A stretch of 50,300 nucleotides of DNA, taken from Chthoniobacterales bacterium. GTDB taxonomy: Bacteria > Verrucomicrobiota > Verrucomicrobiia > Chthoniobacterales > UBA6821. This document shows, piece by piece, positions 24,299 to 50,300 of the stretch; the first letter of the stretch is position 1; each line of letters starts with the position of its first letter. A program made the position numbers and the translations under genes. The notes under the pieces are model-generated. The model was not told the DNA's origin and searched no databases. It worked only from the letters and a program-made list of their open reading frames with translations. The DNA lies in NCBI GenBank assembly GCA_035287205.1, contig DATEBV010000358.1:1-50300 (forward strand), read 5' to 3'.

Positions 24299-24403
24299 AG
24301 CAGGTAACAGGTAGTAGATGACAGGCAGAAGAGTTGCTACTGAGCGATTTTTAAAACCAATTAACGGATGGGAAAATAAATTCGTTACTTGTCGTTACTA
24401 ACT

Positions 24404-24585
24404 CAGATATTTCATGCCCATCTACTACGACTTGCGAGAAACTTGATAAATACTGCGTTGGATTTGAATTTTTCTCTCTGCTAAAAATAATGTCCTTCTT
24501 ACAGCTACTGCGTTAAAATCCTTCGTCCACCTTGTCTTATCAAGCTTCGTGCTGCATCTCGCTACGATGTGTATGAAATATCCGG
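24404..24585 (-). repeat. Family E long-hairpin element, core-only copy (E1)
   Basis: cagatatttcatgcccatctactacgacttgcgag...gcgttaaaatccttcgtccaccttg...ctcgctacgatgtgtatgaaatatccg. Colinear with the reverse complement of E4; terminal stem atatttcat/atgaaatat. Confidence 0.82.
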
Positions 24586-24607
24586 GTTAACCTCCAAATT
24601 TATTTTT

Positions 24608-26299: not shown

Positions 26300-26333
26300 A
26301 AACGGCGCTGGATTTATCCAGCGCCGTTTTTTT
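26300..26333 (+). terminator. Rho-independent terminator after OMP paralog 1
   Basis: aaacggcgctgg-attta-tccagcgccgttt followed by a T-run. Confidence 0.85.
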
Positions 26334-26494
26334 GCATCATACTTTTATTCTAATTGCTACAAACTGAAAATTATGCTTGCCATCTCCTTTTTGAAATTAG
26401 TACGATCACTAAGTTAAATTAACTAAATCTTTAGATAGCTAGATAGCTGTGCAGTTTTTTACAAGTTCTCTACATTTCTAAAACCCTAAAATCT

Positions 26495-27049: not shown

Positions 27050-27078
27050 GGTTTTTTAAGAAAGTTAATTTTAGTTGT

Positions 27079-27112
27079 AAACGGCGCTGGATTTATCCAG
27101 CGCCTTTTTTTT
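27079..27112 (+). terminator. Rho-independent terminator after OMP paralog 2
   Basis: aaacggcgctgg-attta-tccagcgcc followed by tttttttt. Confidence 0.85.
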
Positions 27113-27175
27113 GTAACTATTTAGATTGCATAGAATATTATTTTTGTTACTGTTTCGGTTCTTAAAAAATATATT

Positions 27176-27733
27176 ATGAATAAAACACTATCACTCCTTG
27201 CTATAGTCCTTATGGCAACAACGTCATTTGCAGGTCAAGCAGTTTCTTCGAAGAAGGTTGTTTGCACATCTGATGATTGCCGCTTCCATGCTAATGAATG
27301 GCAAGTTGATGTATCTACTGTAGGCGCTGTAGGTGTTTATGGTGGTCAAAACAAACAGGCGCTAGGAGCTAATCTAGGAGTGAATTACTTCTGGTCAAAA
27401 TACTTTGGTGTTGGTATTGATAACTCAGTTGGTAGTGAAAGAAATGCTGGGATGACAGGGTTTAATGGATTGCAGGCTTACGACAGTCTTCAAGCGGATC
27501 TGATCGCTCGTTATCCTATCTGTTCTTGGAATCTTGCTCCTTACGCCATGGTAGGTGGTGGTGCAAGTTGGGGTCCTGCTAGCCAAGGCAATGGTAATGT
27601 TGGTGGGGGTTTGGAATATCGTTTAATGAAGAATGTCGGTTTCTTTACTGATTGTCGTTGGCTTTATGGTAATAATGGGACTATGTCACTGAGCATGGCG
27701 ATGCCACGTATAGGTATGCGTTTGGGTTTCTAA
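27176..27733 (+). CDS. small beta-barrel outer-membrane protein, paralog 3 (more divergent)
   Basis: 185 aa; same architecture (signal peptide, CRFxANEWQVD, LQADLIARYPICSWNLAPYAMVGGG, C-terminal ...RLGF). Confidence 0.8.
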   Translation: MNKTLSLLAIVLMATTSFAGQAVSSKKVVCTSDDCRFHANEWQVDVSTVGAVGVYGGQNKQALGANLGVNYFWSKYFGVGIDNSVGSERNAGMTGFNGLQAYDSLQADLIARYPICSWNLAPYAMVGGGASWGPASQGNGNVGGGLEYRLMKNVGFFTDCRWLYGNNGTMSLSMAMPRIGMRLGF

Positions 27734-33306: not shown

Positions 33307-33734
33307 AAAGTTTGGTGTGGAGATTATTAAAATTATGATCACTTTTTCTCAAAGAAATATTGATGGATTAAGAAGTAAGGCTACAGCATTTTTGAATGAA
33401 GAGCAAAATATCAAAAAATCGAGATAAAGCTAAGGTAACCAAAAAAATTGGCTGCCGGGATGAACTCCCTGCAGTCTGCAGTCTGTACTCTGCAATTTGT
33501 TACCGTGCTATTCTAAAAAAGAAGCGAATTTATACTCAAGAAAAAAGCAATCGATACTTATAATATATTTTCTAAAAAAGAATCAAAATGCTTGACCTGG
33601 ATGTCACTTCTCGACAGTGAAAGGTGAGAAGTGAAGTGGAAGCAATAGGGCTAAAAATAGAAGATAATCTTATTATATAGGATAATTTATTTTTTTAATT
33701 TTATCTATTAACCAGTGCGATAGTGACTTAAAAA

Positions 33735-33914
33735 GTATATTTCATGCTCCTGTACTATGGCTTGCAAGAAGCTTAATAAATACTGTGTCGGATCTGAACC
33801 GTTATCTTCGCTAAAATAATACCCTTCTATAGTCACTGCGTCAAAATCCTTCGTTCTTTTTGTCTTATTAAGTTTTGTGTTGCGTCTTATTACGACGTCT
33901 ATGAAATAGACGGG
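33735..33914 (-). repeat. Family E element, core-only copy (E2)
   Basis: gtatatttcatgctcctgtactatggcttgcaag...gcgtcaaaatccttcgttc...cttattacgacgtctatgaaatagacggg. Very close to E1; contains the symporter stop codon (33899-33901). Confidence 0.82.
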
Positions 33915-35541: not shown

Positions 35542-35596
35542 ATTAGGGAAGTAGTAACCACCAATGTTGGTAGTTGAGAGATAGAAGATAGAAGAT

Positions 35597-35674
35597 TGCA
35601 TTTTAAATGATTACTTTGCAGTCCGATTATTTAATTCAGATCCGTCCTCCGAAGGAGGGGATCTGAATGCCTAC
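35597..35674 (+). repeat. Family A element (A13), antisense at the 3' end of the hydrolase gene
   Basis: tgcattttaaatgattactttgcagtccgattatttaattcagatccgtcctccgaaggaggggatctgaatgcctac; encodes the hydrolase C-terminus and stop on the minus strand. Confidence 0.88.
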
Positions 35675-36670
35675 TTCACGTTCAATAGCCGTAATGAGTG
35701 AGGAGGGATTGGCTAAAGGGGCAAGGAAACCAGGTGATTCTACTTCTGTAATAGAAAAACGATGAGCCAAGGGGCGCAGGCTCGTGATAGTTTCTGTTGT
35801 TTGACGGTTTGATTCTTGCGCTACAAGTAGTGCTATGGGAGCCGTGATCGTTGTTAGCCTTGCTGGAAGACTACGCCAGAATTTACGGGAGCTTTGAGCT
35901 AAAAAAGCATGCTCAGTTCCATATTGTTGTGCTGTGGATGTTAGGACAGTGAGGATTTCTTCAAAAGAGGGATCTTCGGAAGGAAAATGAGAGCGGATAA
36001 GCCAGTTTCTAATAGAAGCCTCTGTGCTTAACTGACGATGATAGACTAAGCGTGCAAGAGGGGGAAACCAAGAAAGAGAATAGGTGCCTGCTAAAGGGAA
36101 AGGACTTTTAGTTCCTTTTATGGCCAATAAAGGCATCCAGAGAAGAAGACGCACCACTTTATTGGGATAGGAGGCGCTTAAAAGAAGAGCAAGGTTAGCA
36201 CTCAGTCCCGAAGCAATAATAGTAACTGGCTTACCCTTGGTTGTGGCTTCTAGAAACTCTGCAAGAGAACGTGTTTGGGCATGAGCAGAGATGGCAGGAC
36301 GAGGGCGCTGAGACTCTCCGAAACCAATCAAATCAGGAACTAAGACCTGATAATTAGGTGCAAAGTGAGGATACACTTTAGACCATTCGAAAGAGGACGC
36401 CCCTGGGAAAACACCATGGAGAAAGAGGAGAGGCTCTCCTTCTCCTGAAGTATGATAAACGATTTCACCCGAAGAGGTATTTAGAACACGGGTGGCAAAG
36501 ACGGCGGGTGAAATAGCTTCTGAAAGAGGACTACGCAATGGATTTTTCCAACCTGATCGAAGTGCTAAAAGAAGAGCTCCTAGAAGTCCCACACCAAGAC
36601 CCGCCCCAACACTCATACCGATGGGGGAGAGCTTGTCCGGAGAATGATTTTTTTTAAAAGACTTGCTCAT
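35636..36670 (-). CDS. alpha/beta-fold hydrolase with N-terminal membrane anchor
   Basis: 344 aa; LLFLHGVFPG oxyanion-type HG motif, nucleophile-elbow-like IIASGLSAN. C-terminal GIQIPSFGGRI is encoded by repeat A13. Confidence 0.65.
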   Translation of the reverse strand: MSKSFKKNHSPDKLSPIGMSVGAGLGVGLLGALLLALRSGWKNPLRSPLSEAISPAVFATRVLNTSSGEIVYHTSGEGEPLLFLHGVFPGASSFEWSKVYPHFAPNYQVLVPDLIGFGESQRPRPAISAHAQTRSLAEFLEATTKGKPVTIIASGLSANLALLLSASYPNKVVRLLLWMPLLAIKGTKSPFPLAGTYSLSWFPPLARLVYHRQLSTEASIRNWLIRSHFPSEDPSFEEILTVLTSTAQQYGTEHAFLAQSSRKFWRSLPARLTTITAPIALLVAQESNRQTTETITSLRPLAHRFSITEVESPGFLAPLANPSSLITAIEREVGIQIPSFGGRI

Positions 36671-37863: not shown

Positions 37864-37950
37864 GGTAACTATTCGGCCAATAGGCCGAATGTAAGTTTAA
37901 GTTGTAAGTTTAAGTTGAAGTTGATTTTTGGTCACTTCGTGACAATGTAA
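37864..37950 (+). repeat. Family C element (C2) filling the whole purF-purM spacer
   Basis: ggtaactATTCGGCCaataGGCCGAATgtaagtttaagttgtaagtttaagttgaagttgatttttGGTCACTTCGTGACaatg. Abuts the purM ATG (37861-37863) and ends 4 nt from the purF stop. Confidence 0.9.
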
Positions 37951-37954
37951 AAAT

Positions 37955-39484
37955 TTATGAGAGAGGAAAAAGGGGAGGTTGAATGGTTTCGTCAGGCAAG
38001 AAATGAGCTTTTTTGCGACGTTGTTCCATGATAAGTTTATCAAAAGAAGCATCGAAGGGTACCGGATACTCACCTGTAAAGCAGGCAAGACAGAAACTCT
38101 CTTTAGGAAGTCTTGTGGCCTTGACCATACCGGCTACATCAAGGTAACCAATGCTATCTGCGCCGAGGTATTTGCAGATTTCTTCTTGAGTGTATTGATT
38201 AGCGATCAGTTGTTTTGGATCAGGAAAATCAATGCCGTAATAACAAGCATGGCGATGAGGGGGACAACTAATGCGAAGGTGGACCTCTTTGGCACCTGCT
38301 TCTCTGAGGTTGATAACTCGTGTTTTAGCGGTAGTGCCCCGGACAATGGAATCATCAACTACAACCACACGTTTTCCTTTTACAGAATCCCCAATAAGGT
38401 TGAGTTTCACACGTACATTAAAGTCACGAATAAGTTGTGTTGGTTGGATAAATGTACGTCCGATGTAATGATTGCGTACAAAAGCAGGGTCGTAAGGAAT
38501 ATTGAGTTCTTCAGCAAATCCGAGAGCGGCATAAATTCCTGAGTCAGGAACAGGAATTACCATATCAGCTTCTACAGGATGAAGTCGTGCGAGTTCTTGC
38601 CCCATACGAACACGAGCCTGACTTACATTAACATTATGAATATTACTATCAGGACGTGCAAAATAGACATATTCAAAAATACAAAAAGCTTCTCTAGTGC
38701 TTGTGAAGGGAAACTCCGAGCGGATACCTGATTCATTAATAATAACAACCTCTCCAGGTTCTACATCACGAATAAAGGTAGCTCCAATAAGATCAAAAGC
38801 GCAGGTTTCCGAGGCAAGGACCCAAGCATCGCCAAGCTTTCCGAGAGAAAGTGGACGAAATCCATGAGGGTCACGCACTCCAAGAATTTCCTTTTCGCCC
38901 ATGATGACTACACTAAACGCTCCTTCAAGATGGCGTAGAGAACCCAGAGGGCTTGTTTCTTCTCCGTTACTGCTTGGCTGAGCTAGGAGGTGAAGGATGA
39001 TTTCACTATCTGAGGTAGCTTGAAAAACGGATCCCGTTTGTTCTAATTCGGCACGCAAGCGTGTGGCATTGACTAAATTTCCATTATGGGCAATAGCTAA
39101 TTGTCCACGGTGGGTATCTGCCGTGAGTGGTTGCGCATTAAGGAGACTACTTGATCCTGTGGTTGAATAGCGGACATGACCAATGGCTCTTGTTCCGTGA
39201 AGTTTTTCTAGCTCTTCTTGTTTGAAAACCTGACCGACAAGGCCCATACCTTTGGTAATTTGGAAGGGAGTTTGATCTCCACTATAAGTGGCAATGCCGG
39301 CGCTCTCTTGACCTCGATGTTGAAGTGCAAAAAGGCCGTAATAGGTTATCAATGCTGCTTCAGGATGCCCGTAAATAGCAAAGACGCCGCATTCGTGTTT
39401 AGGATAACTCTCAAGATCACAACCAAGGTCGTGATTTTCAGGTTGATTTGGAGGTTGAAAACTCGCAGTTGGGAGTGGATTCAT
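37955..39484 (-). CDS. purF: amidophosphoribosyltransferase
   Basis: Propeptide followed by nucleophile CGVFAIYGH; PRPP loop VVVVDDSIVRGTT; C-terminal Cys ligands (CYYGIDFP, CLACFTGEYP). Confidence 0.92.
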   Translation of the reverse strand: MNPLPTASFQPPNQPENHDLGCDLESYPKHECGVFAIYGHPEAALITYYGLFALQHRGQESAGIATYSGDQTPFQITKGMGLVGQVFKQEELEKLHGTRAIGHVRYSTTGSSSLLNAQPLTADTHRGQLAIAHNGNLVNATRLRAELEQTGSVFQATSDSEIILHLLAQPSSNGEETSPLGSLRHLEGAFSVVIMGEKEILGVRDPHGFRPLSLGKLGDAWVLASETCAFDLIGATFIRDVEPGEVVIINESGIRSEFPFTSTREAFCIFEYVYFARPDSNIHNVNVSQARVRMGQELARLHPVEADMVIPVPDSGIYAALGFAEELNIPYDPAFVRNHYIGRTFIQPTQLIRDFNVRVKLNLIGDSVKGKRVVVVDDSIVRGTTAKTRVINLREAGAKEVHLRISCPPHRHACYYGIDFPDPKQLIANQYTQEEICKYLGADSIGYLDVAGMVKATRLPKESFCLACFTGEYPVPFDASFDKLIMEQRRKKAHFLPDETIQPPLFPLS

Positions 39485-39525: not shown

Positions 39526-40319
39526 CTGAAGTAATAGGAAGAAGGAAAAAAGAGGAAAAAACAGCCACAAAAGAACGACCAGAAAAGTGCAGGGTAAAGA
39601 GTAAAGGGTTAAGAGTTCTGAGGCGGAATTTGCTAAGTCAACACTATATGACCAACAGATGGGATCTAGCCAGCGAGAAGAGCAGAAATTAACCGCAAAA
39701 GAACACACAGGAACAACAAAAATTCTGTAATCAAGATAAGAACCTTAGTAGTGTAAAAGTTGATACGGTATAAGATATCATACGATACGATTGCTGTCGA
39801 GTAACCGTATAGGTCCTTCCAAAGAAGAGTAGGTCTTAATACCTATGGTTAAGGTAGTAGTAATTTTTAATAGCTTTTTTAATCAATGGCCTAAATTTTA
39901 TGTTTAATGACAATTCTTTAAAAGCCTTTTCTAATTTTTCAGGATGCTCTATGAGGTCCTTGCAGATAACTGCCGAATTTTTTGGCAATACGAGTTACAA
40001 ATTCTTTCTCATGAGGAGGCATTGTGTTGCGATTCACAAAAGCCCAGTTGGTTTCATACAGGCGCAGAGCTGTCTCCTCCGTCATTTGTGGAGTATGACG
40101 ATTCCAACATAACGCTGCCAATTCTGGAAAGTCATTCCAAAAAATGAGCTGATCTTTATGATGCTCGAGAATTGCATTTTGCATGAGAAAAGTATAGGCG
40201 TTGGCGTTACGGCTGTCGACAGGAAGAAGGAGCAAATTAACGACAATAATTACTCTGTTAATTACTTCTACGTTCTTTGTGTTCTTTTGTGGCTATTTTC
40301 TTCCTTCTGCTTATTTCAG
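39526..40319. mobile_element. Family B-bounded 794-bp segment (B3) enclosing ORF 39939-40235
   Basis: Left arm: ctgaagtaataggaagaaggaaaaaagaggaaaaaacagccacaaaagaac, plus a second arm-like block at 39684-39725. The right arm reverse complement reads ctgaaataagcagaaggaagaaaatagccacaaaagaacacaaagaacg. The right arm contains the protease stop codon. Confidence 0.6.
39939..40235 (-). CDS. hypothetical small helical protein (possible cargo of a family-B-bounded segment)
   Basis: 98-aa ORF (81 aa from ATG 40184); no family recognised; the only ORF between inverted family-B arms 39526-39587 and 40271-40319. Confidence 0.35.
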   Translation of the reverse strand: MLLLPVDSRNANAYTFLMQNAILEHHKDQLIFWNDFPELAALCWNRHTPQMTEETALRLYETNWAFVNRNTMPPHEKEFVTRIAKKFGSYLQGPHRAS

Positions 40320-42106
40320 TTTTCGTCTGCCGGTTGAACGAATAGTAGCTCTACGAATTTTCCAGTGACCTCACCAAGAGGTTGAAAAATTTCCTTGTTC
40401 CACCAGTGATAGCAATTGGTTGAGTAAGAGTACCAGGTAGTAGAAGATTCTGGTACTGCTGGTGGTGAAAGTTTCAAAAGAGCCTCGAGTGCTTTAGGAA
40501 TATTCAGTCGTCCTGCAATAATTTTTCCTTCGAGCGAGGGGATTTTATCCGTTGTGTTGAGTAGTGTCGTAATGAGGGTATCATAAGGTTGATCAGGAAA
40601 TTGATCTTTAAGGAGAGCAAAGGTTCCGCTAACAAAAGGCGCTGCCATGGAGGTGCCACTACAGATGGCATAGGAGGTATTAGAGTCGGCATATGTTGAT
40701 GTGATATCCACTCCAGGGGCAGCTAAATGAATTGTTTTAGAACCATAATTTGAAAAGGGAGCAAGCTTGTCATCCCATGTTGTTGCTGCCACGGCCACAA
40801 TGTTATCAAGTCCATAGCAAGCTGGATAGATAGGGCAGAGATCGCTATTGACCGATTCATTTCCTGCTGCGGTGACAAAGATAATGCCTGCCAGGCGAGC
40901 GCGAAAGATGGCGCTTAAAAGCGAAAAATCAAAGCCTCCTTCAGAGCACCAGCTATTATTTAAAATTTGAGCTCCATGCCTACGTGCATAGTCGATGCAT
41001 TGAATTGCATCGCTGCTTATACCGACACCATCAGTATTAAGATATTTGCACGCCATCAGTTGAACATGTGGAGCAATGCCAGCAACTCTAAAATAGTTGT
41101 CGCTTGTTCCTCCAATGATTCCTGCGCAATGGGTACCATGGCCATCGTCATCCATTGGATTACCATTATTATCATAAGCATTCCAGCCATAGGTGTCGCC
41201 GTAGGTTGGAGAAGGGTTGCACCACATGTTAGGAGCAAGGTTGTGATGAGTATAACGGATTCCTGAATCGATGACCGCAACGATGGGTGCAGAGTTATTG
41301 AGTTGATTCTTTTTCGTTGTAGGAAAAGAGGTGTTCTGAATTGTTGGTTGATCGAATTTCCAGCTCCACCAGGAATTCCAATTTTCATAAAAGCTGTTTA
41401 TATTAGGAATGGTAGTAGCTTTGCAGATAAAATCGGGTCCGCTCATCGAAGCAATCATTTCACTGGTCGCAAGTTGATCTAAAGCCTGTGGTAATGATTC
41501 AAGTGATGATGAGGAAAGATTGACTTGGTAAAGAGGGGCGTCGGGAGTTACTTGTTTGATAGAGATTGCTAAGGATCCCAAGTTTTTGAGAAGAGTCATT
41601 GGTTCTTGTTCATCGGCTAAGGTGACTAGTAAATGGTCGGCAGCCATTTCTTGCCGCGTAATGATACAGCCCGAAGTTGTATCAATGATTTCTTCAGTGC
41701 GAATATAAGGGTATTTAAAATCAGTTTGTAAGATTCTTAATCGCGTATTCTGATGAGGTTTAGGACCTGCAATCTCTTGAGATTCGACCACATGAGCACC
41801 GGGAAAGAAGTGTAATTCCTCATCAGAGGGATGATCAAGAGGGGCAGGGAAAGAAGCAGTGATTCGTGGTGGTAAGAAGGCGCTGGTGGGTGCTGATGGA
41901 ATGAAAGGATTTCTTGCACTCTTTGCGTGAGCTGTAGCAATAACTGAACGATTGTGATGAGAGTGATTGCGAGAGGAAGAGAGAATGGAAGTGGTTGAAA
42001 CAGGAGTAACTGTTTTCTTTTGATAAAAGATTCCGATAAAATATGTGATGACAATGGCAACTAATGCTACATTCACCCTGAAAATTTGAGAATGATGTCG
42101 TTTCAT
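40316..42106 (-). CDS. membrane-anchored subtilisin-like (S8) serine protease
   Basis: N-terminal TM helix; catalytic triad contexts VAVIDSGI (D), HGTHCAGIIGG (H), SGTSMAAPFVSG (S). Confidence 0.85.
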   Translation of the reverse strand: MKRHHSQIFRVNVALVAIVITYFIGIFYQKKTVTPVSTTSILSSSRNHSHHNRSVIATAHAKSARNPFIPSAPTSAFLPPRITASFPAPLDHPSDEELHFFPGAHVVESQEIAGPKPHQNTRLRILQTDFKYPYIRTEEIIDTTSGCIITRQEMAADHLLVTLADEQEPMTLLKNLGSLAISIKQVTPDAPLYQVNLSSSSLESLPQALDQLATSEMIASMSGPDFICKATTIPNINSFYENWNSWWSWKFDQPTIQNTSFPTTKKNQLNNSAPIVAVIDSGIRYTHHNLAPNMWCNPSPTYGDTYGWNAYDNNGNPMDDDGHGTHCAGIIGGTSDNYFRVAGIAPHVQLMACKYLNTDGVGISSDAIQCIDYARRHGAQILNNSWCSEGGFDFSLLSAIFRARLAGIIFVTAAGNESVNSDLCPIYPACYGLDNIVAVAATTWDDKLAPFSNYGSKTIHLAAPGVDITSTYADSNTSYAICSGTSMAAPFVSGTFALLKDQFPDQPYDTLITTLLNTTDKIPSLEGKIIAGRLNIPKALEALLKLSPPAVPESSTTWYSYSTNCYHWWNKEIFQPLGEVTGKFVELLFVQPADEN

Positions 42107-42462
42107 AGTAGCCGCTCAGTCCCCGTTCCGCGTAGACTGAAGAAAAAAAGAGTTTTTTATTGTAACGTTGTCTTTCTTAAAGAAAAATCGTCATTATAAA
42201 TGATGCCGTAACTACCAAGGTAGATGCCTTGGTAGTTGTTTAGGAGTTTAGGGGAGCAACTATTTACGGCAGGCCTTAAGACCTATCTAAGTGACTACTT
42301 TTTGAATAAAATGCAGGAGTTATAGAAAAACTTTCCCTTAAACCCTTAAACATTTAAACTATTAAACACTACCAACGTCTTCATAGGCGTTGGTAGTTAC
42401 AAGATGTCTAAAAAAAGAAATTAACAAGGATAGAAGCGATGAATGAAAGAAACCTGGAAAAT

Positions 42463-42541
42463 AAAAATACCGGTTCGCTTTTTACCTTGTCACGAAGTGA
42501 CCAAAAATCAACTTAAACTTAAACTCTCAACTTAAACTTAC
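42463..42541 (-). repeat. Family C element lacking the ATTCGGCC hairpin (C6)
   Basis: aaaataaaaataccggttcgctttttaccttgtcacgaagtgaccaaaaatcaacttaaacttaaactctcaacttaaactta. Confidence 0.8.
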
Positions 42542-42577
42542 TGCAAAGTAGTAAATACTCTTTACCCATTACTTTTT

Positions 42578-43528
42578 ATGAGACTCCTTCTTGTCGATGG
42601 TCACTATTATCTTTATCGGTCTTTTTTTGCAATTCGTGGATTGAAAAATTCCCTGGGAGAACCAACGAATGCCATTTATGGATTTGCAAAAGCCCTGCGC
42701 AAGATGTTAGTTGATTTGAAGCCTGATGTGGCAGCAGTGGTTTGGGATGCAGGGTTGCCAGAGCGTCGTACAGAGCTTCAACCAGCTTATAAACAGCATC
42801 GTGAGGAAATGCCTGATGAATTAGTAGTTCAAGAAAGACCCCTCCGTGAATTAGTCTCCTTTTTGGGATTTAAGAGTGTTTTACTGCCTAATACAGAAGC
42901 TGATGATTTAATTGCGTCTTATGTTATAGCGGCTCGTACTGAGGGGATAGAATGTGTGGTGGCAACCAATGATAAAGATATTTTGCAGCTTGTCAGGGAG
43001 GGAGTCTCGATTTATTCGGTGTCTAAAGTAGACTTAGAGAATTCTAAGACAGGTCCTACAGGATATGCATTGCTTGGGATCGATGAGGTAAAGGCTAAAT
43101 GGGGTGTTGAACCAGCTCAGATTGCTGATGTTTTAGCTCTGACAGGGGATGCGGCTGATAATATTCCAGGAGTTGTTGGTGTTGGAAAAAAAACAGCGGC
43201 TAAATGGATTCAGCAGTATGGATCGCTTGACGCTTTGCTCTCAGAACCCAACCTGGAACCTAAGATTAAGGTTAAAGTGGATACTTCGAGAACTCAGATT
43301 GAAGAAAATCGTCTTATGGTAGGGCTTGATCTTGATCTTCCTCTTCCTTTACCCATCAGCGAGATGATGATTACCCCTCGTTATCCAGAACTTATTAAAG
43401 CCCTGAAGCATTTTGAATTTCGATCTTTAACCGCAGAGGTAGAAAAAGAGGCGAAAAATGCTGGCGTAGTAATTCAAGAGGAAAAGAAAATAGAGAGGGC
43501 TTCACAGCAAGGAGAGTTCGCATTTTAA
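42578..43528 (+). CDS. stand-alone 5'-3' exonuclease (Pol I N-terminal / FEN-like)
   Basis: 316 aa; MRLLLVDGHYYLYRSFFA, TNDKDILQL, H3TH region LTGDAADNIPGVVGVGKKTA; no polymerase domain. Confidence 0.88.
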   Translation: MRLLLVDGHYYLYRSFFAIRGLKNSLGEPTNAIYGFAKALRKMLVDLKPDVAAVVWDAGLPERRTELQPAYKQHREEMPDELVVQERPLRELVSFLGFKSVLLPNTEADDLIASYVIAARTEGIECVVATNDKDILQLVREGVSIYSVSKVDLENSKTGPTGYALLGIDEVKAKWGVEPAQIADVLALTGDAADNIPGVVGVGKKTAAKWIQQYGSLDALLSEPNLEPKIKVKVDTSRTQIEENRLMVGLDLDLPLPLPISEMMITPRYPELIKALKHFEFRSLTAEVEKEAKNAGVVIQEEKKIERASQQGEFAF

Positions 43529-43560
43529 CGTGCCAACGTCAAATAAAACTATTAAGAGAA

Positions 43561-43622
43561 GAAAAGAAGGAATAGCCACAAAAGAACACAAAGAAACACA
43601 AAAAAGAAAACCGGATCGTAAC
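43561..43622 (+). repeat. Family B solo arm (B4)
   Basis: attaagagaagaaaagaaggaatagccacaaaagaacacaaagaaacacaaaaaagaaaacc, about 30 nt after the 5'-3' exonuclease stop. Confidence 0.8.
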
Positions 43623-43651
43623 TTTGTTTGTTTCGGCTTTAATGAATCATT

Positions 43652-43885
43652 AGACTTCTTTGAAAATTCGCCTATGCTAATGAAGTACAAGGAGTCTACG
43701 GCGCGCAAAACCTGAGTGTACAGCAGTACTCGATGGTTTAAGATCGAAACTTTTATTTCCATCGTAGCGAGACGTAGCGTTCATCGAATCTTCCGCAAGT
43801 CGTAGTAGATGGAAATAAAAGTTTCGTTCTAACACCGGAGCGACGAAGTAATTTATTAGCAGAAGTAGAATTTCCAAAGAAGTCT
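43652..43885 (+). repeat. Family E element with outer arms and an internally deleted core (E3)
   Basis: Outer arms: agacttctttgaaaattcgcctatgctaatgaagtac / gtaatttattagcagaagtagaatttccaaagaagtct. Inner 22-bp stem: 43742-43763 / 43808-43829. 28-nt block cctgagtgtacagcagtactcgatggtt at 43711-43738. Ends 1 nt before ATG 43887. Confidence 0.85.
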
Positions 43886-43886
43886 T

Positions 43887-44522
43887 ATGAAACGACAATT
43901 TGTCCAAGAGATGGGGCGTAGCCCCCGTTTTACCATTCTTGAGTTACTCCGATGCTCAGAAGGAGGGCTTCCTGTTGATGATCTCGCGACAAAGCTTTCG
44001 ATGAGTTATATGGGAGTTAAAGCTCATTGCCTTGAAATGGACGATGAAGGATACCTCGAAACATGGCGTCAACCAGGAAAACGTGGTCGTCCTCGGATGC
44101 TCTATCGGTTAACAGAAAAAGCTTATGATCTTTTTTCTGAAGAGAAAAATGATCTGGCTCTTTCATTTCTTACTGTCTCAAAGAAGCTTTTTGGTGCTAC
44201 AGCACCTCAGAAAATTTTGATGCTTCATTATCGTGCCGTTTCTGCCAAGTATAATGAGCAGATCAAAGGTGCTACGACAGAAGAACGAGCAGCTTCTTTT
44301 GCTCGTATACGTCATCGTGAAGGATATCTCAGTGATTTTGAGGAAGGTCCTCCTTGGCGTATTATTGAGAATCACTATCTTTATCGCGATCTTTTAATGG
44401 CCTATCCCGAAGTGGATGCCTTTGAATGTCAGATGATCAGTGAAGTTCTTGGTGTGCCCGTACGGCGTGAAGTGACGATGGTTGCAGGATTGTATCGGGC
44501 AATTATTAGCAGCAAGCTGTAA
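43887..44522 (+). CDS. winged-helix (ArsR-like, COG2345-type) transcriptional regulator
   Basis: 211 aa; N-terminal wHTH with GKRGRPRMLYRLT wing motif; the start codon is abutted by the 3' arm of repeat E3. Confidence 0.65.
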   Translation: MKRQFVQEMGRSPRFTILELLRCSEGGLPVDDLATKLSMSYMGVKAHCLEMDDEGYLETWRQPGKRGRPRMLYRLTEKAYDLFSEEKNDLALSFLTVSKKLFGATAPQKILMLHYRAVSAKYNEQIKGATTEERAASFARIRHREGYLSDFEEGPPWRIIENHYLYRDLLMAYPEVDAFECQMISEVLGVPVRREVTMVAGLYRAIISSKL

Positions 44523-44547
44523 GTGCTGCTTTGCAGTTTGTTTAAGT

Positions 44548-44860
44548 GGGAAGAAGGAATAGCCACAAAAGAACACAAAAAAGCACAAAAAAAGAACCTG
44601 GGTGGTGGAATTAATTAATTAGAGTCTCTAAGTTGAATAGATAGGTCATTAGTACCTCAATTCCATTTTGTAAAAAGATTATCGATGATATAGGAAATTT
44701 TTGTATTTCTTTGTGTTATTTTGACTCGCTCGCTCCCGTTCAGCAGCCCTATAGGGCTATTCGAGCAAGGCTCTTCATAGTCCATCTCACGGCCGCTCGA
44801 TTACTGGTATTGTGGCTATTTTCTTCCTTCTTTCTATTACTTTAGCTTAGTTTGAGCTCT
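44548..44860. mobile_element. Family B inverted-repeat element (B5); right arm split by an 84-bp GC-rich insert
   Basis: Left arm: gggaagaaggaatagccacaaaagaacacaaaaaagcacaaaaaaagaacc. Right arm is in two pieces, 44697-44722 and 44808-44860 (tattgtggctattttcttccttctttctattactttagcttagtttgagctc). The insert 44723-44806 contains the palindrome agccctatagggct. Confidence 0.75.
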
Positions 44861-44904
44861 CAAAAAATGTTTCAAAAATAAAATTAATTGTTGAGATGAA
44901 TTTT

Positions 44905-44941
44905 CTGTAGCCTGCCACCTGTAACCTGTAACCTGCTGCTT
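44905..44941 (+). repeat. CCTGYAR heptamer tract abutting the lysA start codon
   Basis: ctgtagcctgccacctgtaacctgtaacctgctgctt-ATG. Confidence 0.85.
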
Positions 44942-46351
44942 ATGCATTCTTTTCATTACAATCATGGAACTTTTCACTGTGAAGAAGTTGATCTAACTAC
45001 CGTCGCTAAAGAGGTGGGAACACCAGCTTATGTCTACTCAGCGAAAACTGTTCTTGAAAACTACCGTCGTCTTAACCAGGCATTAAATCCTCTCGATCGG
45101 ATGATTTGCTATGCAGCCAAGGCCAATAGTAATCTTGCTATCCTTGGTTTATTAGCCAAAGAGGGAGCTGGGTTTGATATTGTTTCTGGAGGAGAGCTCT
45201 TTAAAGTATTGAAAGCAGGAGGACGTGCTGATCGTTGTACTTTTGCCGGCGTAGGGAAAATGGTTTTTGAAATTGAATATGCACTTAAGCAAGGAATTTA
45301 TTGCTTTAACGTTGAGTCAGAGGGGGAGTTAGAGCTTATCAATGAGGTAGCCGAACGACTTGGGTGTGTGGCTCCTATAGCTCTTCGTGTAAATCCTGAT
45401 GTTGATGCACCAACGCATCATTATATTTCTACAGGGAAGAGTAAAAATAAATTTGGCATTGGGCTCGATCGCGCTGAAGCTGTTTATGCGCGTGCAGCAG
45501 CACTTCCTTATCTTAAGATTCGGGGGCTCCAGACGCATATTGGTTCTCAGATTTTAGACGCAGCTCCTTTTGCAGAGGCTGTCCATAAATTGACGCCCCT
45601 TGTTAGGAAGCTTCAAAAACTTTATGGATTAGAATTTTTTAGTATAGGAGGGGGTGTAGGGATTGGCTATCGTGGCGCTTTAGCAAGTGATCCGGCTTGC
45701 ATGAAGCCGATGACTGCGGCGTTGGACTCGAAATCTTTCTCAGGCAGTATGCCCCTATACAGCCATCCTCAGATTTCATCGTCCGCCTTGCAGCATCGCC
45801 GTCCTGCGTCGCCGGATAATGAGGTATCAGGTCTGAGTCCAGAGGCCTATGCAGCTCAAGTTATTGAACCACTACGAGCGCTTGGTTTAAGGATTCTTTT
45901 TGAACCTGGGCGTTTTATTGTTGGTAATGCAGGGGTGCTTTTAACAACAGTTCTCTATCGCAAGTCGACACCTGCCAAGAATTTTCTGATTGTTGATGCT
46001 GGTATGAATGACCTTATTCGTCCTGCACTCTATCAAGGCTATCATGAAATTGAACCACTTCGGGAACCCATTGATCGTCCTCTAGAAAAGATCGATGTAG
46101 TCGGTCCTGTCTGTGAGAGTGGTGATTTCTTTGCTCAAGATCGTATGATACCTCGTGTTGAACCTGGAGAACAAGTAGCACTCATGAGTACGGGAGCTTA
46201 CGGTTTGGTGATGGGTTCTAATTATAATGCACGTCCTATGCCACCCGAAGTTCTCGTGGAAGGAAAAAAAGCGACCGTGGTGCGGAGACGGCAGACCTGG
46301 GAGGATCTTATTAGCCTGGAGGTACATATTCGGCCAACAGGCCAAATATAA
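44942..46351 (+). CDS. lysA: diaminopimelate decarboxylase carrying an in-frame repeat insertion
   Basis: PLP-Lys context YAAKANSNLAIL, GGGVGIGY, VVGPVCESGDFF. About 45-50 extra residues after GIGYRG are encoded by E-family core 45690-45817. C-terminal IRPTGQI is read through the C3 hairpin. Confidence 0.9.
   Translation: MHSFHYNHGTFHCEEVDLTTVAKEVGTPAYVYSAKTVLENYRRLNQALNPLDRMICYAAKANSNLAILGLLAKEGAGFDIVSGGELFKVLKAGGRADRCTFAGVGKMVFEIEYALKQGIYCFNVESEGELELINEVAERLGCVAPIALRVNPDVDAPTHHYISTGKSKNKFGIGLDRAEAVYARAAALPYLKIRGLQTHIGSQILDAAPFAEAVHKLTPLVRKLQKLYGLEFFSIGGGVGIGYRGALASDPACMKPMTAALDSKSFSGSMPLYSHPQISSSALQHRRPASPDNEVSGLSPEAYAAQVIEPLRALGLRILFEPGRFIVGNAGVLLTTVLYRKSTPAKNFLIVDAGMNDLIRPALYQGYHEIEPLREPIDRPLEKIDVVGPVCESGDFFAQDRMIPRVEPGEQVALMSTGAYGLVMGSNYNARPMPPEVLVEGKKATVVRRRQTWEDLISLEVHIRPTGQI
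45690..45817 (-). mobile_element. Family E core (E5) inserted in frame within lysA
   Basis: Ordered shared blocks with the reverse complement of E4: cggcttg, gatga, ctgcg, ggact, cagtatg, atacagcc, tcgtcc, gccttgca. Inverted ends atccggc (45690) / gccggat (45811). Visibly more GC-rich than the flanking lysA sequence. Confidence 0.72.
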
Positions 46352-46465
46352 GTTTAAGTTTTAAGTTTAAGTTTAAGTTGATTTTTGGTCACTTCGTGAC
46401 AAAGTGAAAAGTGAAGCGGCATTTTTATTTGCACCTAGTTTTTTGCTTTCAAAGTCGCTTCAGGA
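46326..46465 (+). repeat. Family C element, long form (C3), overlapping the lysA 3' end
   Basis: atATTCGGCCaacaGGCCAAATataagtttaagttttaagtttaagtttaagttgatttttGGTCACTTCGTGACaaagtgaaaagtgaagcggc...gtcgcttcag. The lysA stop (46349-46351) follows the hairpin. Confidence 0.9.
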
Positions 46466-46520
46466 TAGGGGTTCAACGTGTCTAGAAAATTTTATCGTCT
46501 GGGTTAACTGAATACTTACG

Positions 46521-46653
46521 CCTGAAGGGCGGAGAAGAAGAAATTAACCACAAAAGGACACAAAAGAAGAAGTAAAGAGTGAAGGATAAAGAGATGGAAG
46601 AAATAGCCACAAAAGAACACAAAGAACGCAAAGAAGAAGGGCACAAAAAAAGA
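46521..46653 (+). repeat. Two tandem family B arms (B7)
   Basis: cctgaagggcggagaagaagaaattaaccacaaaaggacacaaaagaagaag...gaagaaatagccacaaaagaacacaaagaacgcaaagaagaagggcacaaaaaaaga, then ATG 46654. Confidence 0.75.
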
Positions 46654-46785
46654 ATGTCAGTTAAAGTGAGCAGTGCCGAAATGGATGCTATTAATGAAGC
46701 TTTAAAAGATACAAAAAAAGGGATTTCTTTAGAAGACTTGCATCAGCAGTTAAAGAAGGAACGCTTAAAAAACTGGAGAGAATAA
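46654..46785 (+). CDS. hypothetical 43-aa protein
   Basis: MSVKVSSAEMDAINEALKDTKKGISLEDLHQQLKKERLKNWRE; the ORF-track N-terminus (IATKEHKERKEE) is translated family-B repeat; weak call. Confidence 0.3.
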   Translation: MSVKVSSAEMDAINEALKDTKKGISLEDLHQQLKKERLKNWRE

Positions 46786-46871
46786 AAATATCGCTTCGCG
46801 TCTTACCTTGTTACAAAGTGACCAAAAACTAACTTAAACTTAAACTTTTATTCGGCCTGTTGGGCGAATAA
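46786..46871 (-). repeat. Family C element (C4), inverted, overlapping the proB 3' end
   Basis: aaaatatcgcttcgcgtcttaccttgttacaaagtgaccaaaaactaacttaaacttaaacttttattcggcctgttgggcgaataa. The proB stop (46840-42) lies in the AAGTTTAAG tract. Confidence 0.88.
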
Positions 46872-47622
46872 ACCTCGTCCCCACATCTTCTCCAACGAGT
46901 GCTTTCTCGATTTGCTGTGGCTTTCGTCCATCTGCAATGATGGTTTCAATGCCTGCGGTTGTGGCAACTTCTACGGCTTTGAGTTTGGTGGCCATTCCTC
47001 CAGTAGAATGTTCTCCTTTTTCAGGAGTAACATGACATAAGACGTCTTGGAGGTTAGTAACCAAGGGGATTCTTTGTTGAGGGATGCCGCCTAATGTTGT
47101 CATCAGCCCATCAGTACTGGTTAAAAGAATTAATAGACGAGCCTTCATCATGACGGCAACTTCTGCTGAGAGTTGATCATTATCTCCTAGGCGCAATTCT
47201 TCGACAGCAACGGAATCATTTTCATTGATAATGGGAATAACATGACGCGACGTTAAAAGATGGTTTAATGTTGCTTGAGCATTATGACGTCGTGATTTTG
47301 TATAAATATCTTCATGGGTTAGCAAGAGTTGTGCTGTGGTCACTTCATGATAAGCAAACTCTTTGGCATAAGTTGCCATTAGCATCGGTTGTCCTACGGC
47401 AGCACATGCCTGCTTTCCTGCAACATCGTTGGGACGTTTTTCTAAATTTAGAGCATGGACACCAGCGGCTATGGCACCACTACTAACAATAATACAAGGG
47501 ATTCCTTGTTTGATAAGAGTTGAAATTTCGGAAGCAAGACGTTGAATTTGCGCTAAGTCAATGGCACATCCACCTGGTTCTGCTAAAATGCCAGTACCGA
47601 ATTTAATAATAAGAGGATTCAT
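46840..47622 (-). CDS. proB: glutamate 5-kinase (no PUA domain)
   Basis: IIKFGTGIL, IIVSSGAIAAG, NENDSVAVEELRLGDNDQLSA. Start moved to ATG 47622 because upstream codons are family-B repeat. C-terminal FIRPTGRIKV is read through the C4 hairpin. Confidence 0.88.
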   Translation of the reverse strand: MNPLIIKFGTGILAEPGGCAIDLAQIQRLASEISTLIKQGIPCIIVSSGAIAAGVHALNLEKRPNDVAGKQACAAVGQPMLMATYAKEFAYHEVTTAQLLLTHEDIYTKSRRHNAQATLNHLLTSRHVIPIINENDSVAVEELRLGDNDQLSAEVAVMMKARLLILLTSTDGLMTTLGGIPQQRIPLVTNLQDVLCHVTPEKGEHSTGGMATKLKAVEVATTAGIETIIADGRKPQQIEKALVGEDVGTRFIRPTGRIKV

Positions 47623-47633
47623 AGGCTGTAGGA

Positions 47634-47890
47634 AAAAATTCACCACAAGGAACACAGAGATACACAAAGAGCACAAAAAAAGAATTTTTATAAAAATTCT
47701 TTAACATGTTAAGAACTAAAGAAGATTAGTGAAAATAAATCATAACGCATTAGTTATAAACATAATAAATATTTTTGAATTCTCTTTTTAACACTGGGTT
47801 TGCGTTCACAATTCCCCACTTTAAAATTTTTTATAAAAAATTTTATCTATGTGTTCTTTGTGTATCTATGTGTTCCTTGTGGTGAATTTC
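47634..47890. mobile_element. Family B element, GAATTCACCACAA subfamily (B6)
   Basis: Left arm: aaaaaattcaccacaaggaacacagagatacacaaagagcacaaaaaaagaatttttataaaaattc. Right arm: aaaattttttataaaaaattttatctatgtgttctttgtgtatctatgtgttccttgtggtgaatttc. Arms match B2, but the central cores are unrelated. Confidence 0.85.
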
Positions 47891-47916
47891 TGCCAACTAC
47901 GATGACATTTGTATAA

Positions 47917-48873
47917 CTACGAACAGTTACCTTGGTAGTTTTGCATGAGTTCTAAGAATCCCGCTTCAAGAGCCAATGCTTCCTGAATACCTTGTTCCAA
48001 GGAACGGCGAAGTGACTCGATGGCATCTAGAGACCGCAGTAGGCATTTCGTTTCATTTTCACTCATTTTTTGTTCGTGATTTTCCTTATAAACAGCACGT
48101 AATCGAGCTCCAAAATAGTCTGCTAAGGAGCCGAGTAAAAAGGTGCGTTGTTCGAGTGCTGTTGCTTCAGAAGAAGCTTTAAAATATTCGTCGCGTTGGT
48201 TTTCCCAATTACCTTCTGTTGTTTTGCTATAATGTTTTTTTTCAGCATTAAATTCTTCTTCTGCCGCATTAAGGGCCTCTTCTCGTGCTTCCCCTAGCAA
48301 TGCTTGAAACGAACGCGCTAGTTGAAACGCTGCCGTGGCATCTGTAGGTGCTCCAGGAGCAAAAAATTTCTCCATAAGAAGAGTCACTTTTTTTTCTTTC
48401 TCTTCAAGAGGGCGTTCTTCTTTAGAGTGAATAGAGAGAAGAATACAACGTGAACGAATTGTTTCTAATAAGGCTTCTGGTAAGGTTGTTAGTAAGAGTA
48501 GGAGAGTGCGTTCTGGTGGTTCTTCAAGCGTTTTAAGAAAAGCATTCGCTGCTGCAGGAACCATCCGATCAGCATCTTCAATAACAGCTACTTTATAGGA
48601 ACTTATTTGAGATTTGAGATGAAGTTCTTCCTCAAGCTTGCGGATCTGTTCGGTAAGAATTTTTCGTGATTTTGATTCGGGAGCTATTTGGTGAAAATCG
48701 GGATGTGTAAGAACATGAAGTGGACCGCATCCTAAGACTAAGGCTGCAACTTCCTCGCTAAGGAGTCGAGCTCCAGCATGAAGGTTGCCAGAAATAAGAT
48801 AAGCATGACCAAGGCGATCTTCGGTAGTAGCTTTTTGTAGAAAATGAAGTGCTTCTTCTTTAGAAAATGCCAT
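47917..48873 (-). CDS. holB: DNA polymerase III delta-prime subunit
   Basis: GHAYLISG, KVAVIEDADRM, ANAFLKTLEEPP, IRSRC motifs. Confidence 0.8.
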   Translation of the reverse strand: MAFSKEEALHFLQKATTEDRLGHAYLISGNLHAGARLLSEEVAALVLGCGPLHVLTHPDFHQIAPESKSRKILTEQIRKLEEELHLKSQISSYKVAVIEDADRMVPAAANAFLKTLEEPPERTLLLLLTTLPEALLETIRSRCILLSIHSKEERPLEEKEKKVTLLMEKFFAPGAPTDATAAFQLARSFQALLGEAREEALNAAEEEFNAEKKHYSKTTEGNWENQRDEYFKASSEATALEQRTFLLGSLADYFGARLRAVYKENHEQKMSENETKCLLRSLDAIESLRRSLEQGIQEALALEAGFLELMQNYQGNCS

Positions 48874-48876
48874 GAT

Positions 48877-49016
48877 AATTATTCGGCCAACAGACCGAAT
48901 ATAAGTTTAAGTTAAAAGTTTAAGTTTAAGTTGATTTTTGGTCACTCCGTGACGAGTTGAGAAGCGAAGCGGTGGTTTTATTTTTTCCCAATTTTTGATT
49001 TTGAAGTCGCTTCAGT
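48877..49016 (+). repeat. Family C element, long form (C5), abutting the holB start codon
   Basis: aattATTCGGCCaacaGACCGAATataagtttaagttaaaagtttaagtttaagttgatttttGGTCACTCCGTGACgagttgagaagcgaagcgg...gtcgcttcag; starts 3 nt from the holB ATG (48871-48873). Confidence 0.9.
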
Positions 49017-49057
49017 AAAGAATCTCAATAAATTTTACCGGGTGAGTGGACGAATAT

Positions 49058-49795
49058 TTACAGGATATGGGTGAGAGCTTTAAGTTTGGATAGGATTTTT
49101 TCAGTGACTTCGTCAGCTGATCCTGAGGCATCGATAACAATAATACGGTCAGGTTCTTGCTCTGCCAGGGTGAGATAACCATGGCGAATAGCTTCAAAAA
49201 AAACTTCTGATTCTTGTTCGATACGATCAGGCATTGTTGATGAATTGGCATTACGTGATACCATTCGTTTACGCCCTATAGCAACTTCAAGATCAAGTAA
49301 GATCGTAATATTAGGAAGTGTTCCTCCTGTGGCAAATTGGTTCATCCAGGTTACTTCTTCTTGATTTAATGCACGTGCTACCCCTTGATAAACGGTGGTA
49401 GAATCAAGAAAACGATCGCAGAGCACAATAGCTCCACGAGAGAGAGCGGGACGAATGATTTCACGTACGAGTTGAGCCCGACTTGCTGCGAAGAGAAGTA
49501 ACTCTGTTTCAGGAGCCATAGCCGCGGATTCTGGAGCATATTGTAAAATAGAACGAATCTGTTCACCTACACCTGTTCCTCCCGGTTCTCGCAAGAGCAG
49601 AACCTCACGGGAGGGGGATGTGACATTGCCCTTTTGAAAAAACTCTGCCAGGCGAGCAATCTGCGTTGATTTGCCACACCCCTCCGAACCCTCAAAAGTA
49701 ATAAAAAATCCACCATTATTCAAATTTTCCTCGTGGGGAAGAGAACTCTGAATGAAATGATTCGACTGTTCATTAATGGTACGATTTAATTGCAT
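49058..49795 (-). CDS. tmk: thymidylate kinase
   Basis: P-loop FEGSEGCGKSTQ, LCDRF, LLDL motifs. The first 24 codons are a decayed family-A copy; alternative TTG 49723 is preceded by GAGGAA. Confidence 0.9.
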   Translation of the reverse strand: MQLNRTINEQSNHFIQSSLPHEENLNNGGFFITFEGSEGCGKSTQIARLAEFFQKGNVTSPSREVLLLREPGGTGVGEQIRSILQYAPESAAMAPETELLLFAASRAQLVREIIRPALSRGAIVLCDRFLDSTTVYQGVARALNQEEVTWMNQFATGGTLPNITILLDLEVAIGRKRMVSRNANSSTMPDRIEQESEVFFEAIRHGYLTLAEQEPDRIIVIDASGSADEVTEKILSKLKALTHIL

Positions 49796-49797
49796 GG
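49724..49797 (-). repeat. Decayed family A copy (A14) absorbed into the tmk 5' end
   Basis: The reverse complement reads ATGCAAttaaatcgtaccattaatgaaCAGTCgAATCATTTcATTCAGAgttctcttccccacGAGGAAaattTG. The peptide QSNHFIQSSLPHEE parallels QSNHLIQIPPPLEE of hemC. The hairpin is no longer intact. Confidence 0.5.
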
Positions 49798-49960
49798 TTT
49801 ATAATTTATCGTTGTTCTCGAAAAAGAGCATCAAAAAAATCTATTCTATTCTTCAAATAGAATTACTTACAGTCAGTAGACTCTAAGTAGGCCTATTGAC
49901 TGAATAGTTACGTCTATCTGAATACAATTCTTATGAATATATCAAAATCTTCTGAAAAGA

Positions 49961-50282
49961 GAGTTCTTTCCAAACTCGCTTCTGTTGATGAAGTGCAAGG
50001 AGTCGACGGCACGCAGAACCTGAGTGTACAGCAGTACTCGATGGTTCAAGATCGGATGTTTCATACACATCGTAATGAGGCGCAGTGCAAGGCCGATGAG
50101 GTCAGGAGGACGAAGGATTTTGATGCAGGGCTGTATGTTTCATACTGTCCCAGTCAAAATCCAAGTCCGACGCAGCATTCATCGAGCCTTCCTCAAGCCG
50201 CAGTAGATGAGGATGAAATATCCGATCTAACACCGGCGCGACGAAACAATTCATCAGCAGAAGTAGAGCTTGGAAAGAACTC
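49961..50282 (+). repeat. Family E element, full-length copy (E4, about 320 bp)
   Basis: Outer arms 49961-49995 / 50247-50282. Inner stem agatcggatgtttcat (50049-50064) / atgaaatatccgatct (50213-50228). Apical stem ggattttga...tcaaaatcc with tip gtatgtttcatac. An identical 28-nt block lies at 50019-50046. Confidence 0.85.
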
Positions 50283-50300
50283 TACGGGGTATTGGCTTGT

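Follow-up and report, generated by a model that had tools for sequence, protein, structure and literature searches.

Nested palindromic repeats in a Chthoniobacterales genome fragment, probably MITE-like, that behave like Rickettsia palindromic elements

The Rickettsia palindromic elements RPE-1 to RPE-10 (Ogata et al. 2000) are transposase-less, high-copy repeats of ~100–200 bp, which recur as in-frame insertions in unrelated housekeeping genes and whose mobilising enzyme is not known (PMC10969869). Protein-coding palindromes of this in-frame kind have been treated as a Rickettsia speciality, and the part of the same paper that cites Delihas 2007 describes some copies of ERIC/IRU as intragenic with open frames (PMC10969869). 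Here we analyse a stretch of 50,300 nt from a Chthoniobacterales bacterium (contig DATEBV010000358.1, positions 1 to 50,300; hereafter the window) and, within it, a long-hairpin element termed E3. A preliminary description, made from the letters alone, had united E3 with four further copies (E1, E2, E4 and E5) in a single “family E”, proposed to be either a structured RNA or a novel miniature inverted-repeat transposable element (MITE). The present data resolve E3 into two large and apparently undescribed repeat families, denoted E core and O; no description of these Verrucomicrobia repeats turned up in the literature searched. E core and O are probably non-autonomous, MITE-like palindromic elements with RPE-like behaviour, with E3 as their nested fossil.

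The E core is an imperfect palindrome across its whole length of 176–185 nt, which, like the ~148 nt of O and the 234–322 nt of the composites, lies within the size range of MITEs. In 1.07 Mb of contigs from related Verrucomicrobia, an nhmmer profile recovered 329 non-redundant copies of the core, of which 151 are full length. The short form of ~185 nt, to which E1, E2 and the core inside E4 correspond, makes up 78 of the 81 non-redundant copies with full flanks. The core is bounded by terminal inverted repeats of 17 nt (CCCGGATATTTCATAC / GTATGAAATATCCGGG), and most terminal positions are conserved in at least 90% of the copies (98 compared). Conservation switches on and off abruptly at TTAACCCGG...CCGGGTTAA (also given as TTAACCCGGATATTTCAT...ATGAAATATCCGGGTTAA), and the flanking DNA is unrelated. 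No transposase gene is contained in the elements, only short internal frames.

The distribution of the core was addressed with several queries. The apex motif GGCTGTATGTYTCATACYGYCC, applied as a DNA pattern to a metagenome collection, matched at least 119 stretches, mainly from lake metagenomes; many of these copies are located at contig ends, and several contigs hold multiple copies. A peptide-pattern scan of genome contigs was far poorer than this DNA scan and returned only four loci. Because 13 pairs of cores are at least 97% identical and yet sit at unrelated loci, the sequences indicate a recent spread in lake populations. The copies in the window itself are old (70–80% identity). Every host named in the records is a Verrucomicrobia or Chthoniobacterales metagenome-assembled genome, and the carriers are freshwater and groundwater Verrucomicrobiota. 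Similarly, the closest organism-named homologues of the window's LysA (most matches are unnamed) belong to Chthoniobacterales and other Verrucomicrobiota. The translation of the E4 frame matches a hypothetical protein of “Verrucomicrobia bacterium RIFCSPHIGHO2_12_FULL_41_10”; the contig of this bacterium, together with contigs of three ENA metagenomes that share the tmk gene of the window, revealed two further long copies. A blastn search of 72,556 plasmids with E4 gave no match.

The flanks of the core carry the signature of a target site. Among 96 copies with YTAR at both ends, 75 show identical tetranucleotides on the left and right (TTAA in 50, CTAG in 19, TTAG in five and CTAA in one), while a minority differ at one outer base. 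Where the flank pairs are non-palindromic, six are direct and none is inverted. TTAA- and CTAG-flanked copies coexist inside single subfamilies of at least 88% identity, and the flank therefore derives from the target, not from the element. Moreover, eight cores were found at TTAA inside another repeat, D2, whose copies in the window (e.g., 46313–46456) are uninterrupted at this point and represent paralogous empty sites. We propose that the E core inserts at YTAR in the order of preference TTAA, CTAG, TTAG, most likely with duplication of all four base pairs. IS5 elements target YTAR and generate a 4-bp duplication; IS630 elements target CTAG or NTAN and duplicate TA. In either case, a transposase with its gene at another locus would act on the copies in trans; duplication of all 4 bp of YTAR would point to an enzyme of the IS5 type, duplication of TA only to one of the IS630 type.

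A number of observations accompany these insertion data. The D2/D6 repeat (18483–18615, 37864–37995, 42458–42542, 46313–46456, 46767–46870 and 48874–49005) follows directly after stop codons and consists of a hairpin, ATTCGGCCnnnnGGCCGAAT, then (ACTTAA)n, then a second hairpin, GTCACGAAGTGAC; its TTAA sites are preferred by the E core as insertion points in related genomes. Head-to-tail E copies with one common TTAA (...GGGTTAACCCGG...) were observed at the related loci L089 (4137–4369 and 5499–5862), L022 (~2214) and L080 (~1800), and as this TTAA is single, the duplicated target of one copy was re-used by the next. The left arm of some cores holds an extra G+C-rich module of 100–190 nt (...CACCACCGGCGGTCGGGAGACCGCGG...GAGCGGGAGCGAGCGAGTCAACG), as seen in L014 6198–6603, L024 96–470, L101 13402–13815, L112 3075–3450 and L114 6228–6603. 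This module is possibly a third nested repeat, and a stretch related to it adjoins an O-like element in L026. Finally, the left arm of one copy in 81 (L009 4419–4601, minus strand) corresponds to the right-arm type in reverse complement, with the apex in its usual orientation, which suggests re-templating of one arm from the other.

The second family, O, is a TA-flanked palindromic repeat of ~148 nt that folds as a hairpin and has the ends GACTTCTTTC...GAAAGAAGTC. Copies of O free of any core are present in L028, L075, L032, L108 and L128. The flanks of the long copies, joined after excision of the core in silico, match stand-alone O over its full length at up to 94% identity. In four out of four composites (E3, E4 and two in L004) the core occupies an identical position in O, immediately 3' of the apical hairpin. 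Probably, an E core landed just 3' of this hairpin and the composite then multiplied via the O ends, which gave rise to E3, E4 and the two L004 copies.

This arrangement bears on a 28-nt block, CCTGAGTGTACAGCAGTACTCGATGGTT, which the preliminary description had singled out as unpaired, orientation-specific and invariant. The 28-mer indeed occurs exactly twice (43711–43738 and 50019–50046), and no other match is found at up to three mismatches. In folds of E3, E4 and O-only copies the block forms the apical stem-loop of O, with equivalents such as GGAGTTGAGCGTATATAACATACTCGATGCTCC and GAAGTTGAGTGTACAGAAGCTACTCGATGCTTC in the O-only copies. It looks asymmetric and partnerless because the core, inserted 3' of it, displaces the apical hairpin of O to the 5' side. 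Nor is the block invariant: the long copies in L004 read ATTGAGCGTATATAACATACTCGATGCT, and the O-only copies differ further. Such variation among other copies had been named in advance as a result that would speak against the proposal. The identity of the block between E3 and E4 is in itself unremarkable, as an identical run of 28 nt arises in 7.6% of simulated alignments (241 columns, 80% identity).

Comparison of E3 (43652–43885) and E4 (49961–50282) bore out most of what had been noted about the pair, including coordinates and sequences, which proved accurate. The two are homologous, with ~80% identity in two blocks split by ~90 nt of DNA specific to E4. This corresponds to a loss of ~90 nt from the apex in E3, where 88 nt of core remain as compared to 178 nt in E4. 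Both fold into long hairpins (z = −7.5 for E3 and −12.2 for E4 in RNA folding against shuffles), and DNA folding of E3 is equally exceptional (z = −7.6). The remnant of the core in E3 contains a perfect inner stem, AAACTTTTATTTCCATC / GATGGAAATAAAAGTTT, which differs from that of E4 at many positions, on both arms simultaneously. Stepwise compensatory substitution is disfavoured as the origin of this stem, since the E3 and E4 stems differ on both arms at once. A later internal deletion probably removed 90 nt of the core, and the perfect new stem may stem from a single hairpin-templated repair or deletion event, most likely the same one. A further stage is found in L085 (801–972), an O copy in which the two E termini, fused into 24 nt (GAGTGGATGAAACTATCCGCTC), are all that is left of the core where it is normally inserted. 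It follows that O-nested cores decay by internal deletion, with E3 (88 of 178 nt left) as an intermediate. The 24-nt remnant in L085 could be either the end-product of deletion or an excision footprint. E3 is probably a decayed fossil of two nested non-autonomous MITE-like palindromic elements. E4 lies wholly within a frame, a putative gene, that is open from an ATG at 49933 to the end of the window and is not mentioned in the preliminary description; the matching metagenome contig ends at the same place. An assignment of E4 to the 5' end of a true gene, with E3 as a pseudogene fragment, was rejected because the same DNA is found in unrelated contexts and O and E also occur separately.

The remaining copies in the window are solo or decayed cores. 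E1, E2 and E5, the last of which the preliminary description had placed in lysA without coordinates, are all significant matches to the core profile (Table 1). None of the three has the outer arms or the 28-nt block, both of which belong to the separate O repeat, and the grouping of all five copies as one family is not sustained. The window is otherwise made up of ordinary housekeeping genes, among them scpA/scpB, dnaA, lysA, holB, tmk and a gene for a 5'–3' exonuclease. Several gene models run into the repeats. The predicted GTG start of scpB falls inside E1 (24569–24590), a sodium:solute symporter gene (33899–35500, minus strand) has its final codons, stop codon included, in the right end of E2 (33899–33914), and the ATG of the open reading frame (ORF) at 43887–44522 overlaps the right flank of E3 (43885–43889), which stops 2 nt before this ATG.

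Table 1. Positions of E core and O repeats in the window, with flanking nucleotides and profile matches.
Feature	Position	Strand	Flanks	Profile match or parts
E3 composite (O repeat with 90-nt-deleted E core in apex)	43653..43884	+	TTA 43650-43652 (left), TTA 43885-43887 (right)	O profile match 43653-43890, E = 3.2e-35
E3 left O arm, including terminal inverted repeat GACTTCTTTG	43653..43710	+		
E3 28-nt block, apical stem-loop of O	43711..43738	+		
E3 core remnant, 88 nt, apex deleted	43742..43829	+	TTAA 43738-43741, TAAC 43830-43833	
E3 right O arm	43834..43884	+		
E4 full composite	49961..50282	+		O left arm 49961-50018, block 50019-50046, core 50050-50227, O right arm 50232-50282
E4 nested full-length core, 178 nt	50050..50227	+	TCAA and (C)TAA	nhmmer match 50053-50229, E = 1e-41
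E1 solo core, 185 nt, between scpA and scpB	24402..24586	-	CTAA 24398-24401, TTAA 24587-24590	profile match 24398-24590, E = 1.6e-27
E2 solo core, left terminal repeat degenerate	33732..33914	-		profile match 33735-33916, E = 1.9e-11
E5 decayed core without terminal repeats, in frame in lysA (44942-46351)	45688..45817	-		E = 7.9e-15

In lysA, the element has become part of a protein. The LysA of the window has ~45 extra residues (approximately residues 250–295) exactly at the core fragment, in a loop, and homologues of 73–79% identity (416–440 amino acids) have 2–15 residues at this point. Solved LysA structures align on either side of the insert, not across it. An AlphaFold model based on a shallow alignment (mean confidence, pLDDT, 66.6) predicts disorder for the insert, with a pLDDT of 23–28 and no secondary structure, between confident elements.

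Such insertions are not confined to lysA. Among the related loci, 18–24 copies sit in frames that continue without a stop over 150 nt or more to either side, and ~5–7% of copies are genic. Host proteins with Pfam support include NadE, in which the NAD_synthase domain is split, and PheT, with the insert between tRNA_bind and B3_4, as well as MalQ, an aldose epimerase, an SBP_bac_5 protein and Nnr. The inserted peptide starts with L(T/A)RIFHT and finishes with YEI(S/C)GL whichever way the core is oriented, a consequence of its palindromic termini. Searching for proteins with the E4 frame by word index yielded three matches; when 1.84 billion representative proteins were searched exhaustively with HMMER, 64 proved to carry the element peptide. 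Of these, 17 have at least 288 amino acids, 47 are shorter than this and 39 are shorter than 150. Among the 17 are a 3-dehydroquinate synthase and a GT9 heptosyltransferase that the complete O+E composite interrupts. Frame 0 lacks stop codons in 30 of 89 copies forward (34%) and 42 of 89 in reverse (47%), as compared to ~5% of shuffles, and the core plus 4 nt is divisible by three in 73 of 128 copies (57%). With one frame per strand often stop-free, multiple-of-three insertions could survive in genes as extra surface loops, and the resident copies would be largely neutral passengers.

In summary, the sharp ends, terminal inverted repeats, YTAR or TA flanks, hundreds of copies in unrelated flanks, insertion into other repeats and nesting favour the MITE option of the preliminary description. 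Several results weigh against this reading and are collected here. Most target sites are palindromic, so that duplication of 4 bp and of TA only are not separable. The empty sites are paralogous or, for LysA, defined at the protein level, and no orthologous pair of filled and empty DNA sites is among them. An autonomous element with matching terminal repeats, or a candidate transposase, was found neither in the window nor in the 1.07 Mb of related contigs. Pairs of terminal repeats 0.45–6 kb apart enclose ordinary genes between separate copies and no transposase, except in L080. At this locus (212–1800), an insertion sequence (IS) of ~1.4 kb encodes a 380-residue protein with a weak rve (integrase core) match and is inserted inside an E core copy. 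It was rejected as the parent of E on account of its own inverted ends (ATTGACTCATAAG...), its apparent 8-bp duplication (GCRCAAGC) and its nesting in an E copy.

The palindrome itself raises further objections. A consensus hairpin was imposed on 98 copies and base pairs were counted over 65 pairs. In total, 84.3% of the cells are paired, compared to 77.4% for column shuffles and 27–43% for slid partners, and 50 of the 65 pairs show double-sided changes, i.e., strong covariation of the arms across the family. Pooled over all sequences and pairs, G:T cells outnumber A:C cells by 642 to 262. The same strand asymmetry is evident from folding: 90 of 95 copies and seven out of seven subfamily consensuses (63–85% mutual identity) form the more stable structure on the forward strand, the consensuses by 10–21 kcal/mol. 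A simple cut-and-paste model for double-stranded DNA does not account for this asymmetry.

It would be explained more readily if the element moved as single-stranded DNA by means of an HUH/Y1 enzyme (IS200/IS605- or RAYT/REP-like), or via an RNA intermediate. The whole-length hairpin of one particular strand would then serve as substrate, with the left YTAR as the target and the right one as part of the element. Besides the folding preference and the G:T excess, the reach of arm covariation far past the ~17-nt terminal repeats that suffice for a DDE transposase is in line with this mechanism, and so is the lack of a DDE partner in the searches above. Nevertheless, the left and right tetranucleotides co-vary copy by copy within subfamilies, which is better accounted for by target duplication, and IS200/IS605 elements lack true terminal inverted repeats of the kind seen here. 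No Y1 or RAYT gene was seen in the loci, which were not screened exhaustively, and the asymmetry could have been inherited from a purine-rich ancestor (forward G 4802 vs. C 3853). On balance, transposition by such an enzyme or via RNA appears rather unlikely. The broader notion that these are translation-compatible palindromes of free-living Verrucomicrobia, which colonise conserved genes in frame both ways round, keep their palindromy on one strand across diverged subfamilies with no DDE partner and move by a single-stranded hairpin route so far undescribed among elements with terminal inverted repeats, is likewise considered unlikely. If true, RPE-type in-frame insertion would be no peculiarity of reduced intracellular genomes.

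The preliminary description had argued that compensated stems exclude a simple MITE. The first half of this argument holds, insofar as the arms covary family-wide. The arms occur as discrete, matched subfamily types, and mismatched chimeras also exist. Among rare variants, present in one or two copies only, 24 G:U and 38 A:C pairs were counted, i.e., there is no preference for G:U. Any constraint on the palindrome therefore acts on proliferating source copies and not on resident ones, which is a prediction of a mobile element and not of a host RNA gene; the exclusion of a MITE is not upheld. A palindromic DNA repeat family of any sort would yield the same covariation pattern. For MITE-like elements, palindromy may be kept as a requirement of the copies from which the family proliferates, perhaps at the stage of a single-stranded intermediate.

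These data also speak to the other option of the preliminary description, a functional structured RNA or protein-recognition site. A small RNA, a cis-regulatory element or an RNA that binds protein, the 28-nt block serving as recognition site, would be in agreement with the high stability of the hairpins, the covariation across the family and the enrichment of G:U on one strand. Still, the rare variants do not lean towards G:U, chimeric copies have non-matching arms, and DNA folding is just as significant. RNAalifold gave no consensus structure on an unguided MAFFT alignment of the 98 sequences. Rfam 15 produced no hit in the whole window at the gathering threshold, and at E ≤ 1 the region 43400–50300 contains only one chance-level snoRNA match, inside lysA. 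Gene contexts and orientations, which rest on rough ORF-based gene calls, are tandem for 55 copies, divergent for 22 and convergent for 21, with no preference evident. Orientation relative to genes is unbiased in tandem contexts (29 same, 26 opposite) and inside genes (10 and 8), so that copies run through coding regions both ways round. The block varies and belongs to a different repeat, and E3 is a deletion derivative. A host-functional RNA is therefore regarded as very improbable. A role as terminator was rejected as well, as there is no T-tract and no lean towards convergent or co-oriented contexts.

That the conserved unit is instead a mobile protein-coding module, i.e., the peptide LTRIFHT...YEISGL with an incidental palindrome, is hardly credible: the stop-free frames, the frequent multiple-of-three lengths and the 64 matching proteins are compatible with it, but most copies are intergenic, over half have stops in every frame, both orientations are found in frame with unrelated peptides, no Pfam family covers the peptide, disorder is predicted for the LysA insert, and conservation is at the DNA level with a sharp end at the terminal repeats.

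Further repeats were observed in the window alongside E core, O and D2/D6. A repeat of ~70–110 nt with the hairpin CAGATCYTTCCTCCGAAGGAGGRAAGATCTG occurs either way round and in many cases overlaps the start of a predicted gene (1038–1106, 1943–2053, 2919–3019, 9950–10032, 10354–10442, 10652–10749, 18685–18785, 20003–20104, 21761–21871, 23470–23512 and 35587–35679); it could be associated with promoters or 5' untranslated regions, or be a further MITE. A purine-rich intergenic repeat, AATAGCCACAAAAGAACACAAA..., was located at 5654–5717, 6030–6071, 39545–39721, 40273–40323, 43556–43619, 44543–44606, 44810–44866 and 46536–46650, with one copy immediately upstream of E3. At 25530–27733, three tandem paralogous genes (246, 184 and 185 amino acids; DNA identity 63–96%) are each followed by the same terminator-like hairpin, AACGGCGCTGGATTTATCCAGCGCCGTTTTTTT.

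In-frame palindromes appear to be more widespread than thought, extending to free-living Verrucomicrobia with hundreds of copies per Mb of recovered contigs. They provide a second, independent system in which to follow how enzymes tolerate inserts of 45–60 residues. On the practical side, the repeats break metagenome assemblies, with many copies at contig ends, create spurious calls of small ORFs and distort gene models; in the window, scpB, the symporter gene and ORF 43887 are affected in this way at starts, stops and C-termini. Annotation of these lineages would benefit from a profile of the family.

Comparison with described repeats places the elements close to several of them. With MITEs derived from IS5/IS630 (Correia, RUP, Nezha) they have in common small size, terminal inverted repeats and mutual nesting, and probably also a TA-centred duplication and mobilisation in trans. 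They differ in that complementarity spans the whole length and covaries between subfamilies, and a parent IS was not found. ERIC/IRU of Enterobacteria and Vibrio are likewise imperfect palindromes over their whole length (~127 bp) with MITE-like dispersal. However, ERICs are mostly situated in transcribed intergenic regions, and they are unrelated to the present elements in sequence and hosts. Orientation-dependent effects of ERICs on mRNA have been reported, whereas the elements described here show no orientation bias. REP/BIME, mobilised by RAYT, are palindromic, high-copy repeats with strand-specific hairpin recognition; their length is 20–40 bp, their tag GTAG or CGTC, and neither terminal inverted repeats nor target duplications are present (PMC3733652). 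The present elements, in contrast, measure 148–322 nt and have terminal repeats, the ends CCCGG... and GACTTC... and probable flanking duplications.

The likeness to RPEs comprises palindromy, high copy number, the lack of a transposase of their own, in-frame insertion into unrelated genes and tolerance of the added peptide. It is a likeness of behaviour, and the elements are accordingly described as working like RPEs and are not filed as RPEs. The hosts are freshwater and groundwater Verrucomicrobiota as opposed to obligate intracellular Alphaproteobacteria, the 17-nt terminal inverted repeats and YTAR flanks set the present elements apart, and here both orientations are translated. Moreover, only ~5–7% of the copies are genic, compared to nearly half for RPE-1.

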